A stretch of DNA of 28,381 nucleotides from Armatimonadota bacterium (GTDB lineage Bacteria; Armatimonadota; Armatimonadia; Armatimonadales; Armatimonadaceae). The notes beneath the pieces are model-generated. The model ran no database searches, was not told where the DNA came from, and saw only the letters and a list, made by a program, of their open reading frames with translations. Position 1 is the first letter of the stretch. Each line of letters opens with the position of its first letter. A program made the translations under genes and the position numbers. The stretch covers positions 1 to 28,381 of the forward strand of contig JAYUUO010000222.1 of the NCBI GenBank assembly GCA_043754515.1. The letters are read 5' to 3'. This document shows, piece by piece, positions 1,057 to 27,247 of this stretch.

Positions 1057-1520
1057 GGGGCGAAGCGGCGGCACAGGTAGAGCAGGCCCCAGATTCCGAG
1101 TGCTACCAGGGTCGCGGATCGGGCGACGCGGACTCCGTAGCGGAAATATGTCGCGATTGCGTAGCCGATAATGGCCGCGCCAATAGTTCTCGGGCCGCAC
1201 TCATCGTAGGCACGCGCCGGAATAAGAAGGCCCATCCCGCAATGCCCGTAATAACGAGCGAGGTGTTCCGTTATGTCCGCCGAGGCCCATAGGCACATAC
1301 CGGAAGCCGTCAGCGCAAGCGTGACACCGAAGCCACGCCGTCGGTATTCGTGCCAGTGTTCTGTTAAGATTCCGATGGTGTGAGCGCGCTTACAGCCTCC
1401 TTGCCGGGATCGTCGCAACCGTGGCCGCTCGCGCCGAGAGTCGCGCCCGTCGTCAACGCGGGTCATGAATTCGCCGCGATCCTGCGGACTAGCACCCGTG
1501 TCGCCTACCCCCCGTGACAT
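1053..1520 (-). CDS. possible small membrane protein (start uncertain, may be a remnant)
   Basis: The C-terminal ~100 aa have three hydrophobic segments. The N-terminal part runs through palindromic DNA and looks non-coding. Confidence 0.35.
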   Translation of the reverse strand: MSRGVGDTGASPQDRGEFMTRVDDGRDSRRERPRLRRSRQGGCKRAHTIGILTEHWHEYRRRGFGVTLALTASGMCLWASADITEHLARYYGHCGMGLLIPARAYDECGPRTIGAAIIGYAIATYFRYGVRVARSATLVALGIWGLLYLCRRFAP

Positions 1521-1625
1521 AAGGGGTATTCTGACCGGCGACAGGTCATGTGGGTTTCGCCCGCCCGCCGGGAACGCGGGGCGAAACCCGCGTGGCCACG
1601 GGGGAACGAAACCCGCGTTCCCGGC
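1499..1625. repeat. cluster of inverted and direct repeats (REP-like)
   Basis: IR 1552-1562/1579-1589 (GGGTTTCGCCC), IR 1567-1580/1612-1625 (14 bp), direct repeat CGAAACCCGCGT at 1582 and 1607, and a hairpin at 1499-1543. Confidence 0.6.
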
Positions 1626-1701
1626 ACGGCGGCGCGTAACTAACCAGACTATGATGTAATCGCTCTACCGGCACGGCTCATCAAACAGCGCGAGCCTACA
1701 A

Positions 1702-1749
1702 GCAAGGCATCCCGCCCCGACACTGGGGCGTCGGGGCGGGATGCCTTGC
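1702..1749. terminator. perfect 20-bp hairpin, likely a terminator or processing stem for the minus-strand frame ending at 1765
   Basis: GCAAGGCATCCCGCCCCGAC (1702-1721), 8-nt loop, then its exact reverse complement (1730-1749); the U-tract is weak. Confidence 0.6.
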
Positions 1750-1764
1750 GCGTGATCGGCGGGT

Positions 1765-1955
1765 CTACTTCCCCGCCGCGCCCCTCTCCGCGCGGCGGCG
1801 GTTGATCTTATCCTCGACCGCGCTCTCCGAGGAGTGCGGCGCGGCACCGGCGGGGACGGCCCCTTGTTGAGTAATGGGCGCTTCCTTCGGCTTCGAGTCG
1901 CACCCCGCGTTTGCGACGCAGGCGAGACCGCCCGCCGCTACAGGGATGCGAAGTG
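1765..1955 (-). pseudogene. small lipoprotein-like frame lacking a start codon
   Basis: Reads ..LRIPVAAGGLACVANAG-C-DSKPKEAPITQQGAVPAGAAPHSSESAVEDKINRRRAERGAAGK-stop, with a lipobox-like NAGC (Cys 1900-1902). No ATG/GTG/TTG occurs in frame up to the stop at 2017-2019. Confidence 0.5.
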
Positions 1956-2491
1956 TAGCTCCTCTGGGTGATGTGTGTAATTTCGAACTGAATCGTTTTG
2001 ATCTACGAGAACGGCCTCAGGTTACCGGTGCTCTAACTATTAGCCAGTGTACCTCCCTGACACCGTGCGCGGGGCAAAGGACGACAGGCGGGGCACCCCT
2101 GCAACAGCGGCCCCCCTCCAGGAGCATTGCTCCCGGAAGGACGCCGATACGCGGATTAGCGATTCTTGTTGCGGAACTCCGGCCCCGCATGGTTCTCCGC
2201 GGCATGGGGCACGGCACCCCCTGGAGCGGTCGCCGGGTCTATGTTCTTCGGCTCCTCGGTCTTTTCCGCATCCTGTTCCCAGCGCGGAGAGTAACGCGAG
2301 GAACAGGACGCACAGAGCCGAGGAGAGAATACCGCGTGTGAAGCACTCTTTAAACGACTAACCGTTAATCTACGGTTTGGTTTCCGTGTTTTCTATTATC
2401 GGCAGAGCTAATACGCTCATCAGGTCTTGTGTCAGCAGTAAGATAAAGAGTGACTTGGCGACGTCGTGTTCTAGTCCTGTCTACACGACGT
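1953..2491. ncRNA. candidate large structured non-coding RNA/ssDNA element of unknown family
   Basis: No credible ORF. Nested stems: 2101-2106/2167-2172, ~2114-2125/2129-2140, 2182-2186/2206-2210, 2229-2234/2457-2462, a long hairpin ~2250-2325, 2344-2352/2444-2452, 2360-2365/2372-2377 and 2461-2469/2483-2491. Confidence 0.6.
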
Positions 2492-2555
2492 GATCCCACG
2501 GTGTCACCGACGTGATTCCACGGTGTCACCGACGTAATCCCACGGTGTCACCGAC
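2487..2555. repeat. three tandem 22-bp direct repeats GACGTRATYCCACGGTGTCACC plus a partial GAC
   Basis: Units at 2487-2508, 2509-2530 and 2531-2552; units 2 and 3 each differ from unit 1 by one base; no spacers. Confidence 0.95.
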
Positions 2556-2624
2556 AGCGGCGCGCAAACACGACAAGCCGCCGGGCAGGATTAACTCGCT
2601 CCCCCCGCGAATAGTAGAGGTACC

Positions 2625-3203
2625 ATGTCATCGAAAGCCGTATTACGACTCCTAATCGGGTGTGTCATCTCCGCGCTACTCCTCGTCTGGCTCTTGCCCG
2701 TGATCGGCGTGCCGACGTCTTACCTGCTCCCCCCTTCCGTGGAACTCGGAACGGCGAAAGGCAAGACGACCGCCTACGTCACCACAAAGAAGACAGGGGG
2801 AAGCATAAACCCGTTCAACTCGGGCGAGACGATGTACTACATTACCTACCAGTTCCGGGCGACGCCGCCGGAGAACTTGATCGAGAAGCCGACCCCCGAC
2901 GAGAAAAAGAAGAAAAAGGTGTACCATGGCCACGTTAATGTAACCGAAGCCACCTACCATTCGTTCCGCAACCCTGAAACGAAAGATGACCCGGCGAACG
3001 ACAAAAAGTCAGAGACTATGCCGGTACGGTTCGAGAAGACACGCCCCGATATAAACGCCGCTCTGGTGGACGGCACGCGCATGAACGATGAAGGGGGTTC
3101 CGTTTTCTTCGGGTCATGGATGCTGTTCGTCGCCGGTATACTCCTGCTCGGCTACATTATCGCGCCGTTTTTGCAACGTATCTTCCTGCGCGAGGACTAC
3201 TGA
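2625..3203 (+). CDS. membrane protein with N- and C-terminal TM helices (DUF3592-like topology)
   Basis: Two hydrophobic helices bracket a beta-rich soluble domain ('YYITYQF'); GAGG SD upstream. Confidence 0.8.
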   Translation: MSSKAVLRLLIGCVISALLLVWLLPVIGVPTSYLLPPSVELGTAKGKTTAYVTTKKTGGSINPFNSGETMYYITYQFRATPPENLIEKPTPDEKKKKKVYHGHVNVTEATYHSFRNPETKDDPANDKKSETMPVRFEKTRPDINAALVDGTRMNDEGGSVFFGSWMLFVAGILLLGYIIAPFLQRIFLREDY

Positions 3204-5141: not shown

Positions 5142-5258
5142 CGCGTGGTGCTCGGTCGCGGCCCCGGAAAACGGAGGCGGTTCCCATCCGCGATCCGGTT
5201 ACCGACCGGAATCCTTCTGCCGTGGCTACCTGTTGTAGGAAGTTCGGAGGCCACGACC

Positions 5259-6617
5259 ATGAAGCAATTCCTTCTGCACGAACACGAAACGCGCCCGTTC
5301 GAGTGGACGGAGCGCGACCACCACGCCGCCGTCCGCCTGAACCGGATCGCGGGCACCGAACTGGTTCGGCTCGGGTACGACGCGCGGGGCGCGAAGACGT
5401 TACAGTCATTCCAGCACGTCGGCGTGTTGCGGCTCGCGCCCGGACGCACGGTACATATCGTGCCCAAGATCCACCGGCACGCGGGCGGGTGCGTGGACGA
5501 GGATGTCGCGCGGCATGCCTCGCGGACTCTGCTCCGCTGGCTTGGTTACGCGGGAACGCTCCCGTATCACGCCGCCGAACGCGCCGCGCTGGAGACGCGC
5601 AACCCGGACTGGTTCGAGGTTTTAACTCGATTTTACGCCGAGAATCTGCGCGACGAGTGGCGACGCGGCCCGATCCGGACGTACATCTCGCGCGACGATG
5701 ACCGCTCGCCGAACCTGGTCGGGCGGTGGCGCGTCGCGGAGCAACTGTGTCGCCCCGCCGAAAAGGGCGTGTTCCGTGTCACCCGCGATGAGTTTTCCGG
5801 GGACACGCCGCTGAACCGCGTGCTACGCTATGTGTGCGAGGTGTTACGCAGGCGGACTACCGACCGGGGGAACCGGGCGATCCTGGATGGTGTGGCGGAC
5901 GAGATGGACGCCGACCCAGTGACGCTACTACTGCAAGTCACGCTCGCGGACGCCGACCCATCACGCCTCCTCTCCCGCCTGAACATGCGCTACGCCCCGC
6001 TCCTTTCTCTCGCGCGGCTGTTCCTGTCGGAGCGAGGCACGGAGCTACTGCCGGGGCAATCGCCGGACGACGAGACGTGGTCGTTCACACTCGACATGAA
6101 CCGCCTGTTCGAGCAGTTCGTCGCCGGGTTCTTCGCGCGTCACAAAACGGCCTGCCTGCCGGACGGCCTCGCGGACTGCACGGTTCTGCCGCAGGCGCGG
6201 GGCCAACGGACGCGCTATCTGGCATTCGACGCCGCCGACCGTGGCCGATTCGAGTTGCACCCCGATCTGGTGCTACGTGCCCCGGACGGCACGTTCTCGA
6301 TGCTACTCGACACGAAGTACAAGCGGCTTAACGAAACGCAGTCCAGCAAAGGAGTCGCGCAATCCGACCTGTACCAGATGTTCGCCTACGCGCACTGCTT
6401 CCCATCCCCGCGCATCGTGCTGTTATACCCAGCGTCGGATGGCGGCGCGGTCGGCGAGCGGGCCACATTCCGGTTCGGCGGCGCGGGCGACGGAACTGTG
6501 CACCGCGTGACCGTGGCTACGATAGACACGCGCAACAATTTGCGGACGGCGGGCGATGTTGACCGGATGGCCCGAGAGTTGCGGCAGATTTTGACGGAGG
6601 AACCTGAAGCAACATGA
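5259..6617 (+). CDS. mcrC: McrC-family PD-(D/E)xK restriction endonuclease subunit
   Basis: HIVPKI, DTPLNRVL, DMNRLFEQFV, PDLVL...LLDTKYK and SDLYQMFAYA motifs. The start is placed at ATG 5259 after GGAGG rather than at 5145. Confidence 0.92.
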   Translation: MKQFLLHEHETRPFEWTERDHHAAVRLNRIAGTELVRLGYDARGAKTLQSFQHVGVLRLAPGRTVHIVPKIHRHAGGCVDEDVARHASRTLLRWLGYAGTLPYHAAERAALETRNPDWFEVLTRFYAENLRDEWRRGPIRTYISRDDDRSPNLVGRWRVAEQLCRPAEKGVFRVTRDEFSGDTPLNRVLRYVCEVLRRRTTDRGNRAILDGVADEMDADPVTLLLQVTLADADPSRLLSRLNMRYAPLLSLARLFLSERGTELLPGQSPDDETWSFTLDMNRLFEQFVAGFFARHKTACLPDGLADCTVLPQARGQRTRYLAFDAADRGRFELHPDLVLRAPDGTFSMLLDTKYKRLNETQSSKGVAQSDLYQMFAYAHCFPSPRIVLLYPASDGGAVGERATFRFGGAGDGTVHRVTVATIDTRNNLRTAGDVDRMARELRQILTEEPEAT

Positions 6618-8635
6618 GCATCGAGAACGAGAGTACCGAGAACGAAGAGACAATCGAACAGGCCGACAACACCGGTACGCTTTCGCCAAACCGCTACGGA
6701 GTAGATCGCGAACATGCCGATTCCGCCGAGGCCGTGTTCAAGAAATTGATCCCGGATATGGCGGCACGTTCGGCGGTGGTGAAGCTATTCGCTGATGTCG
6801 CTGAAATAGCCGACATAGCAACGCCGGGTAATTGGAGTGTTCGCCTCGATTCGGACGGTATATATCTGGTCGCGGGTGCTTACCGCGTCCTTTATCTCCG
6901 AAGTATGGGCTTGCGCGTCGCGCTCGTCACATTGGCAATCACCGGCGAATTAGCCGCCGCGCTGAAGGACGCTGGTGCCACGCTCTCGGAGGACCAGTTC
7001 AAGAGACTGACAGGTGTGCAACGCTATGACTTGCCGGAACCCGTCGCGGCGAGTTTAGTACCTGTTATCAGCGAGCTGATGCCCGCATTTTTTGACCTGC
7101 GAGAGGTACGTGATTATCAGTTTCCCCGAGACAGCATAGAGGCACACTCTCCCGGCATTCTGAAATTCCTCCGTCGCGAAACCGGGCGGGACATTCCCGA
7201 TCCTACTCACTCCCGTGGAATCGGACAAACTGAACCGCACGCTAAATCCTTGTCCACACCAGGGACTGCTGACGCGGAGCCAATCGTCCCGAACAATGCA
7301 GTCGTGGGCGAGCTTCTCGCGCTGACAAAACGCACGAGGAACATCCTGCTCTACGGCCCGCCCGGAACAGGCAAAACGTATCATGTCCAGAAGTTCGCAG
7401 AAGCGTTCCTCACACCACCGCCCGTGGCAACGTCCGAAGACAAAGCGGCAAAACGACTAGCGGTACTCCGCGAATTAAAGTGGTACGAGACGATATCGCT
7501 AGCGATCTACCTGAGCGGGCACGAACGATTGAAGGTTGCCGCGATTCTGAACTTACAGATGATGCTAGATTACGTCAAGTTAAAGAATAGCAACCATCCA
7601 AAGCAAACTATCTCGGGGCGCCTACAGGCGCACACGCACCTCGGGAGTACAACGGTTAGCTCCACAGACCAGCGTGAGCCGTTCCTGTTTGACAAGGGCG
7701 AAAGCTCCGAGTGGTTCCTGACCGCCGAAGGGCGCGAATGGGTCGAGGACAATCTCGCCGACGAACTTGCGCTCTGGCGCGGGCAGGGACCTCCCGCGCC
7801 GTTTGACAGGGCCGACTACATGACGTTCGTGACGTTCCACCAGTCGTACGCCTACGAGGAGTTCGTCGAGGGGTTGCGCCCCGACACCGACGACGAGTCC
7901 GAGTCGGGGCAGGTACGCTACCGCGTCCGCCCCGGCGTCTTCCGCGAGATCTGCGCCCGTGCCGAAGCATCGCCGCACCGGAAATTCCTGCTCGTGATTG
8001 ACGAGATCAACCGCGCCAACATCGGCAAGGTGTTCGGCGAACTGATCACGCTGATCGAGGACGACAAGCGGCTCGGTGAGCCGAACGAGGTCACGGTCAC
8101 GCTCCCCTACAGCGGCAAGCGGTTCGGCGTGCCGCGCAACCTGTATATCCTCGGGACGTTGAACACGGCGGACCGCTCCATCGCGCTACTCGACCTCGCA
8201 TTGCGTCGCCGTTTCACATTCGTGGAAATGGCACCAGAGCCGGACCTGCTAACGCAAACCGTGGAAGGCATTCCGCTGTCCGCTCTAGTGGCGCGGCTGA
8301 ACCGGCGCGTCGCCGCGCTACTCGATGACGATCACCGAATCGGGCACGCGTACTTCCTGTCGGTGGCGAACCTCGACGACCTGCGCTTCGTCTGGTATCG
8401 GAAGGTAGTGCCTCTTCTCTCCGAATACTTCTACGGCGACGGGGAGCGGCTACGAATGGTGCTCGGCGCGGCTTTCTTCGCCCCAAACGCGTCAGGGGAA
8501 GGCGGCTTGTTCGAGGATGGGAACGATCATGGGAACGCTTACCTATACGAACGCGCCCGCTACCCTCTGCTAGCATATGAGGACGATGACGCCGGGTTCG
8601 TCTCCGCGCTTTCCCATCTGGCGGGCCTCTCGTGA
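6614..8635 (+). CDS. mcrB: McrB-family AAA+ GTPase
   Basis: GPPGTGKT, TFHQSYAYEEFVEG, IDEINRAN, NTADRS signature, ALRRRF and IGHAYF; ATGA overlap with the mcrC stop. Confidence 0.95.
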   Translation: MSIENESTENEETIEQADNTGTLSPNRYGVDREHADSAEAVFKKLIPDMAARSAVVKLFADVAEIADIATPGNWSVRLDSDGIYLVAGAYRVLYLRSMGLRVALVTLAITGELAAALKDAGATLSEDQFKRLTGVQRYDLPEPVAASLVPVISELMPAFFDLREVRDYQFPRDSIEAHSPGILKFLRRETGRDIPDPTHSRGIGQTEPHAKSLSTPGTADAEPIVPNNAVVGELLALTKRTRNILLYGPPGTGKTYHVQKFAEAFLTPPPVATSEDKAAKRLAVLRELKWYETISLAIYLSGHERLKVAAILNLQMMLDYVKLKNSNHPKQTISGRLQAHTHLGSTTVSSTDQREPFLFDKGESSEWFLTAEGREWVEDNLADELALWRGQGPPAPFDRADYMTFVTFHQSYAYEEFVEGLRPDTDDESESGQVRYRVRPGVFREICARAEASPHRKFLLVIDEINRANIGKVFGELITLIEDDKRLGEPNEVTVTLPYSGKRFGVPRNLYILGTLNTADRSIALLDLALRRRFTFVEMAPEPDLLTQTVEGIPLSALVARLNRRVAALLDDDHRIGHAYFLSVANLDDLRFVWYRKVVPLLSEYFYGDGERLRMVLGAAFFAPNASGEGGLFEDGNDHGNAYLYERARYPLLAYEDDDAGFVSALSHLAGLS

Positions 8636-26403: not shown

Positions 26404-26476
26404 GGCGCGTTCGTCTAGTGGTTAGGACATCTCCCTCTCACGGAGAAGGTCACGGGTTCGAATCCCGTACGCGCTA
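26404..26476 (+). tRNA. tRNA-Glu (anticodon CTC), no encoded CCA
   Basis: Acceptor GGCGCGT/ACGCGCT, anticodon arm TCTCC-CTCTCAC-GGAGA, T arm ACGGG-TTCGAAT-CCCGT. Confidence 0.96.
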
Positions 26477-27247
26477 CTTTATCTCAACAACAACGTGTTG
26501 AAAGAATATGTCGTGAAACGGCGCGATCGCGCCGAGGCTGACCGATTTTTCAACTATCCTTATGCCGCCATCGAAGAGTTACTGGTGAACGCGATTTATC
26601 ACCGTAGTTACGAGGAACGTGAGCCGATCGAAGTGCGTGTGTTGCCGGACAGCATCACGATCACCAGTTACCCCGGCCCGGACAGATCCGTCAAAATAGA
26701 GGATCTAGCCAGCGGAAGTGTCATCGCGCGTCGCTACCGCAACCGGCGCATCGGCGAGTTCCTCAAAGAGTTGCGTCTAACCGAGGGGCGGGGGACGGGT
26801 ATCCCGACCGCGATCCGCGCGATGAACGAGAACGGGTCGCCACGACCGGTCTTCGCGACCGACGAGGAGCGCACCTACTTCACTGTCACATTGCCTGTCC
26901 ACTCACATATTTTGCAACAGGAGATGCCCCCCCAAGTAACCCCCCAAGTAACCCCCCAAGGTCATGATCAAGTCAAGATTCAGGACGCGGGCAGTCGCGC
27001 CGATACTCGGCTTCGATTGATCCTTGAGTTCTGTGTAAGCCCGCGTGATCGCGTGAGCATCCAGGCGCGTGTCCATCTTAAAGATCCGAGGAACTTCCGC
27101 GACCGCTACCTCACCCCTTTACTGAATGAAAAACTACTCGCGATGACCGACCCGGACCATCCCAAGGTACCAACCCAAAAATACAGAACGACCGATAAAG
27201 GGAACGACTACCTTAAGCAGGACACAACAGCACTGTTGGGGATATAG
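26477..27247 (+). pseudogene. 5'-truncated ATP-binding protein (RecG C-terminal/HATPase_c_4-like plus C-terminal wHTH)
   Basis: YP..AIEELLVNAIYHRSY, YRNRRI, L.LTEGRGTG and a C-terminal FR..YL.PL...MT.PD.P..P.QKY. The usual N-terminal half is missing, and there is no SD or promoter space after the tRNA. Confidence 0.75.
26928..26960 (+). repeat. 12-bp in-frame tandem repeat (PQVT)x~2.8
   Basis: CCCCCCAAGTAA x2 plus CCCCCCAAG. Confidence 0.9.

Follow-up and report, generated by a model that had tools for sequence, protein, structure and literature searches.

A long folded element of one strand ahead of a small lipoprotein-like open reading frame in an Armatimonadota genome: a possible translation-locking leader

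Does a gene-free stretch of an Armatimonadota genome harbor a structured RNA, and if so, on which strand and with which function? The window analysed here is contig C222 (28,381 nt) of a 5.13 Mb genome which is 92.7% complete; near-identical DNA is listed for 20 runs from 11 studies. No RNA run is among those listed, and run X19 is probably DNA; neither point bears on expression. From the letters of the window, an original prediction had placed at positions 1953..2491 a highly structured, orphan non-coding element and had proposed that it is copied into structured DNA by a reverse transcriptase (RT). The element is single-copy in the host genome. To its left are rpiA and a small membrane ORF, to its right is a divergent gene for a 192-aa protein. 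All ten predicted stem arms and a TAGC motif were found where they had been placed, and a host-trained codon model confirms that no frame is coding across positions ~1938-2648. The features are collected in Table 1.

Table 1. Features of the element, of its flanks and of the retron RNA candidate of the host. Positions are those of the window unless another locus is given; WC, Watson-Crick pair.
Feature	Position	Strand	Remarks
Terminator-like perfect 20-bp hairpin directly after the ORF stop	1702..1749	-	weak U tract
Small lipoprotein-like ORF, ~60 codons	1765..1953	-	no ATG/GTG/TTG
Whole folded non-coding unit, ~570 nt	1926..2495	-	57% GC vs 62% in the genome
180-nt rod	1932..2110	-	18-bp closing helix, SD helix, 40-nt one-sided bubble, apical hairpin
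Shine-Dalgarno-like AGAGGAG	1959..1965	-	paired with 2081-2075 in the predicted fold
Exact 10-nt reverse complement of the 22-nt repeat core	2058..2067
13-bp hairpin with 3 G-U	2109..2145	-	p 0.98
Long hairpin, 8 bp + 14 bp (3 G-U) + 4 bp	2252..2325	-	local z -5.7 minus, -4.2 plus
A-rich multibranch domain	2341..2456	-	closing 9-bp helix 2452-2444/2352-2344; p 0.83
Possible pseudoknot, 5' hairpin loop 2476-2472 with 2360-2356	2356..2476	-	5 WC + 1 G-U; putative
5' hairpin, 9-bp perfect stem, 13-nt loop	2461..2491	-	p 0.95
Three tandem 22-nt repeats at the 5' edge of the element	2486..2555		two copies in three other runs
Upstream region of the 192-aa gene	2575..2624	+	alignable in three congeners
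Membrane-protein gene, 192 aa, divergent from the element	2625..3203	+	no Pfam family
msr-msd-like RNA of the host retron	L151:12412-12660 (C263)	-	terminal inverted repeats, long hairpin z -8.1

The claim of an unusual fold held against shuffled controls. On either strand the segment 1945-2495 folds better than all 100 shuffles, with z-values of -3.5 (plus) and -3.9 (minus). Of 28 further non-coding stretches of 570 nt from the host genome, 2 fold equally well, i.e., the fold is above average, not unique. The best-folding controls are C119:8739-9309 and C7:4668-5238, the latter a tandem REP-like array which has two short words in common with the element; the former presumably resembles an IS605-type end.

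A different picture emerges when the two strands are compared by their uninterrupted helices. Between 1920 and 2500 the longest minus-strand helices have 18, 14, 13 and 13 bp, and the top three lengths are reached by 0, 2 and 0 of 400 dinucleotide shuffles; this interval was chosen after the 18-bp helix had already been seen, and the statistic fails to flag RNase P or tmRNA and favors the antisense, i.e., wrong, strand of the msr-msd of the host. The longest plus-strand helices have 12, 11, 11 and 11 bp and are at chance level (56%, 70% and 41% of shuffles). The strongest helix, 2110-2093/1949-1932, has 14 WC and four G-U pairs on the minus strand; on the plus strand the four G-U become A-C mismatches and the pair probability is 0.0. 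The rod which it closes, folded alone, has a z of -2.8 on minus against +0.5 on plus. Thus the idea that folding is constrained on both strands, a mainstay of the original prediction, does not survive. Among 303 other long non-coding stretches only one has an equally strong one-strand pattern, and that one is unrelated.

Could these hairpins be a neutral mosaic of decayed inverted repeats, other repeats and the start of a pseudogene, with no RNA function at all? The two equally well folding controls speak for it, as do 14 of the 303 stretches which possess equally long helices on their own best strand. No conservation was found outside the species, and a 14-mer and a 13-mer are common to the element and the REP-like family at C7 (pairwise E 0.005 and 0.018, both post hoc). 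However, decay of inverted repeats predicts G-U pairs on either strand, and the three strongest compatible helices contain seven internal wobbles on minus and none on plus. Counted in a strand-neutral way, wobble positions give no significant difference (17 vs 13, p 0.58); the four strongest helices give 9 vs 2 (p 0.065). Further, the nine helices with at least nine WC pairs are matched by only 2 of 200 shuffles, and no long match to the element exists elsewhere in the genome. We regard the neutral mosaic as unlikely.

Strain differences were compared in contigs of four runs, one each from four studies. They amount to four substitutions, a T run that varies by one base, and one copy of the 22-nt repeat. 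No minus-strand pair is lost by any of the four substitutions, which is a weak strand test because 73% of transitions break no pair. The changes at 2301 (a single contig, depth 3.5) and 2475 cost 3.3-3.6 kcal/mol in a fixed plus-strand structure, and the latter leaves the possible pseudoknot pair as G-U on minus; the change at 2112 costs 1.3 kcal/mol on minus and gains 1.4 on plus. In our judgement the minus-strand fold is probably under selection. The element is real and one-stranded; the original observation is partly confirmed.

The 18-bp helix affects the limits of the element as well. This strongest helix lies partly outside the predicted limits, and the unit was redrawn to ~1926-2495. 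On the minus strand it contains 80 A and 42 U, and its unpaired regions are A-rich. Two stems on which the original domain plan was built are present in the letters, yet they give way once the 18-bp helix is part of the fold: GCAACA/TGTTGC (2101/2167) has a pair probability of 0.05 on minus and 0.98 on plus, the 2229/2457 stem one of 0.02 and 0.48. The proposed closing helix 2177-2182/2221-2226 has a pair probability of 0.0 on both strands. In the folding model, then, the stems cited for the plus strand appear as alternatives displaced by the rod, or as unformed on either strand.

The segment 2058-2067 could pair with the core of the 22-nt repeats at the 5' edge if the transcript includes them. 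With 14 further copies of this 10-mer in the host genome, we put the chance of such a match at 1-2% and regard it as a lead only. Plasmid iterons or an oriC were considered and rejected (no Rep gene, no synteny).

Is the element then a retron-like RNA? As predicted, the vicinity of the element is free of any RT-sized ORF, so an RT template would have to be an orphan or act in trans. The host genome does encode two RTs (RVT_1 matches on contigs C263 and C197), and an 18-bp helix closing a 180-nt domain recalls the a1/a2 pair and the long helix which closes a domain of ~180 nt in type XIII msr-msd RNA (PMC7736814). However, each RT has its own cis RNA candidate. The C263 enzyme belongs to a type XIII retron (PADLOC RT_XIII, E 7e-145, with SWIM_XIII and WGR_XIII partners). 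Its msr-msd-like RNA precedes the entire operon (WGR/HEAT, SWIM-BRCT, RT), >5 kb from the RT, and fits the type XIII description in the same paper (PMC7736814). Homologues of this RNA were found at 13 of 18 class loci examined, out of 32 relatives with retron loci; four of the five remaining loci are truncated at a contig end, and locus L252 has two copies. A cis RNA downstream of the RT was discarded, because that region is not conserved and the candidate lies upstream of the operon.

The element shows no likeness to this conserved host RNA. The base after the 18-bp helix on minus is C, not the branching G expected behind a1, and the rod has no msd hairpin, its 3' half being a 40-nt open bubble. 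Of 71 class genomes, 33 carry the type XIII RT, and the element was found in none of the other 70. The original prediction had also likened the 5' part to sequence beside RT genes; elsewhere it matches protein-coding sequence only, and among 129 loci which carry the 5' motif no RT was found within flanks of 1.5-2.5 kb or less. In 3 of 4 kin loci checked these motifs are IYENG codons, and the nine GTDB motif matches are mostly VAPLGD or HPEEL codons, in proteins which we take to be NAD synthetase and FeoA. With the two-strand argument gone as well, an orphan or trans-acting RT template is hardly credible.

The second RT locus (L142 on C197) comprises an Avd-like ORF, the RT and a template-like repeat, and its RT probably is DGR-like with a repeat of its own. 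The repeat matches C197:31087 and C271:5725-5806, the latter a possible remote target.

No Rfam family accounts for the element. An Rfam scan gave no match at gathering score, and at E<=10 only noise of miRNA, snoRNA and sRNA type. This bears out the statement that the element is none of tmRNA, RNase P, SRP, 6S or a group II intron; RNase P, tmRNA and SRP are each found elsewhere in the host genome. Models of group I and group II introns have no match in the element at E<=10, and a GACUA/UAGUC pair has neither the order nor the flanks of a group I intron (judged by eye against the consensus). The models of ROOL, GOLLD, OLE and HEARO did not match the element either. Outside the element a weak HEARO-like score (19 bits, E 0.21) was obtained at window positions 1500-1644, a region overlapping a REP-like palindrome family present on several host contigs.

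A 6S RNA had to be considered because none was found in the family of the host: RF00013 matches 8 of 29 genomes of the sister family and none of 32 family genomes, the host included. A strongly diverged 6S RNA, or a functional stand-in, would be a 180-nt rod with a long closing stem and a central bubble, and the rod has this size and outline. However, the element has no RF00013 match at E<=10, and the bubble is one-sided. Eight 6S RNAs from the sister family do not align to the rod, and their profile finds nothing in the host genome. The rod itself was not found in 31 family genomes with its own model (see below). No 6S RNA was seen beside rarA. A 6S identity is very improbable.

What does the 3' end of the rod cover? 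The minus-strand frame 2016-1765 becomes coding-like at ~1940 according to the host codon model, and the left edge of the original prediction is the start region of this small ORF. Its translation has a hydrophobic N-terminal stretch, a Gly-Cys with an atypical lipobox and a low-complexity tail. Canonical start codons are missing; an in-frame CTT lies 5 nt and an ATC 11 nt after AGAGGAG. The TAGC at 1956, correctly located in the original prediction and likened there to retron branch sites, turns out to be the complement of the spacer behind this Shine-Dalgarno (SD)-like sequence. In the folding model the rod pairs the SD-like sequence and the first codons of the ORF, i.e., the SD is sequestered in the primary transcript as in type I toxin mRNAs. 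The modelled mean unpaired probability of the SD drops from 0.23-0.45 to 0.07-0.11 when the 3' arm is included, both at 37 and at 4 C.

The ORF resembles six small lipoprotein-like ORFs of the host (best pairwise E 2.6e-4, on C51; 3 of 6 at E<=0.003), a likeness which is in part compositional; two of the six come after prepilin-type genes. The start-less state is identical in contigs X5 and X10 from two other studies. No protein relative of the peptide was found: searches returned three weak frame matches in 31 genomes, three unrelated long proteins and, in a further search, nothing. An Atlas search with the small ORF gave matches at 0.89-0.90 with low recognition, a lead only. A terminator scan did not call the hairpin behind the ORF, and no sigma-70-type promoter was found. 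In Escherichia coli, AUC initiates at 1-2% of the AUG level and the 57 remaining codons at 0.1-1% (10.1101/063800). Possibly the small gene is already dead. We rejected an intron or an insertion that would split the signal peptide, since the right-hand frame crosses the conserved upstream region of the neighbor gene and the likeness of the flanks, judged by eye, is at chance level.

Because the rod covers the SD and the first codons, we propose that the element would be a long, folded, lineage-restricted 5' leader which holds the small lipoprotein-like gene translationally off. It is the best explanation available, and we advance it tentatively, at somewhat less than even confidence. Transcription of the minus strand would start near 2500-2600. 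The transcript would fold into four or five domains, continue into the ORF and end at the terminator-like hairpin. The last domain, the rod, would pair the SD and first codons; translation, if any, would have to use a weak non-AUG codon, either briefly, while the rod is still open, or following a structural switch or a cut. Candidate parts of such a switch are the 5' domain with the possible pseudoknot and the 10 nt which match the 22-nt repeats. The helices of one strand, the SD pairing in the folding model and the coding-like frame lacking a canonical start are computed results; transcription, co-transcription with the ORF, any switch and any protein product are inferred.

Several observations argue for a leader. 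The ORF and the hairpin are on the folding strand, in the order leader, gene, terminator. The SD-like 7-mer is 5 nt ahead of a signal-peptide-like frame with coding bias. The modelled accessibility of the SD falls to 0.07 once the 3' arm is present, and the start-less frame is shared between studies and resembles small proteins of the host. The strands differ in the z of the rod and in their helix lengths, the latter a pattern which recurs in only one of the 303 stretches. A precedent for an SD-locking leader with a pseudoknot switch is timP (PMC13000454). On the other side, no search found a homologue. A canonical start codon is missing, no sigma-70-type promoter was found, the peptide stands alone, and its lipobox is atypical. 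The statistics have the weaknesses given above: a non-significant wobble count, a post hoc interval, a helix measure which misjudges known RNAs and a weak strain test. Finally, 570 nt far exceeds the length needed to hide one SD.

In its anatomy the locus is close to type I toxin leaders of the timP kind (PMC13000454): it resembles them in a long folded 5' region, a possible pseudoknot, an SD helix, a small, putatively membrane-directed ORF and a terminator-like hairpin. Yet the element is far longer, its product would be lipoprotein-like instead of a single amphipathic helix, and it has no canonical start. No antitoxin RNA was identified; the locus is likened by anatomy, not by sequence, and not assigned to the class. 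The aapA transcript is reportedly another type I toxin mRNA with an SD-sequestering leader.

How widely is the element distributed? BLAST found it in 0 of 40 relatives. Among 400 genomes of the phylum, matches of 32-52 nt in two were not upheld by nhmmer (E 0.56 and 0.13); 70 class genomes gave matches of 31-32 nt in two only, and searches of five genomes each at a loose E gave short matches only. A covariance model of the rod, built from its single sequence, found nothing in 31 family genomes (61-98% complete), in 150 phylum genomes or in 22 loci, and a single-sequence model of the 5' domain nothing in 70 and 150 genomes. Four plasmid records and three phage records matched, each over <=10% of the element. 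Viral pattern scans returned at least 120, 0, 11, 11, 4, 5, 2 and 1 loci, none alike beyond the seed, with the context compared for 31 loci of the largest set. A metagenome scan gave one chance locus; in GTDB a 22-mer had 0 loci and an 18-mer nine chance loci. Candidate structural paralogues at C201 and C171 were dismissed as ordinary hairpins or coding sequence. Since the searched genomes are not complete and a scan for exact patterns overlooks diverged relatives, the element is best described as not found rather than absent. In a literature search which did not reach most of the subscription literature, no paper described an RNA of this kind in the phylum.

This isolation is compatible with another origin: the element may be a stand-alone orphan RNA, or an ORF-less relic of a mobile RNA which came to rest at the 5' end of the lipoprotein gene and deprived the gene of its start, the SD pairing being incidental. 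The single copy, the low GC content, the scarcity of host-common 12-mers, the multi-domain minus-strand fold with a possible pseudoknot and the A-rich unpaired regions agree with it. So do the congeners. The 192-aa gene occurs in 12 of 31 family genomes; in three congeners it adjoins other upstream neighbors, likeness stops left of ~2575, and other DNA takes the place of the element. The size of the element is near the 659 nt of ROOL, and with ROOL, GOLLD and OLE it has in common the scale of 500-700 nt, several domains and the lack of an ORF (PMC12286853). It differs from these RNAs in that it has no Rfam match, is neither beside tRNAs nor in a prophage and, being a single sequence, offers no covariation. 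Against an orphan RNA or relic stand the failure of all models of group I, group II, HEARO, ROOL, GOLLD and OLE at E<=10 and the lack of a second copy, a partner gene or a clear target duplication. The SD is properly spaced from a coding frame, which suggests that the 3' strand of the rod is the own leader of the gene. We consider a stand-alone RNA or relic somewhat unlikely.

Other features of the window are recorded for completeness. The small membrane-protein ORF after rpiA (1056-1400, minus) has many strain differences and a syntenic homologue in congener G002 (36%, E 2e-6). Positions 5145-8635 contain a McrC-like gene followed by a gene for an AAA_5 (McrB-like) ATPase. At 26404-27247 a tRNA-Glu(CTC) is directly followed by an ORF resembling a C-terminal fragment, possibly an integration scar.

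The claim is limited because the element is an orphan of a single species. A bolder version, which we rate as quite improbable, is a new class of ~570-nt pseudoknotted RNA that switches non-AUG translation of a lipoprotein by way of variable 22-nt repeats, or a new stand-alone class of large RNA in bacteria of cold habitats. Should the element be transcribed and fold as modelled, it would be either a translation-locking leader of unusual length, paired with a non-AUG start, or a new large RNA from a little-studied phylum. Either outcome, if true, would be new regulatory RNA biology.
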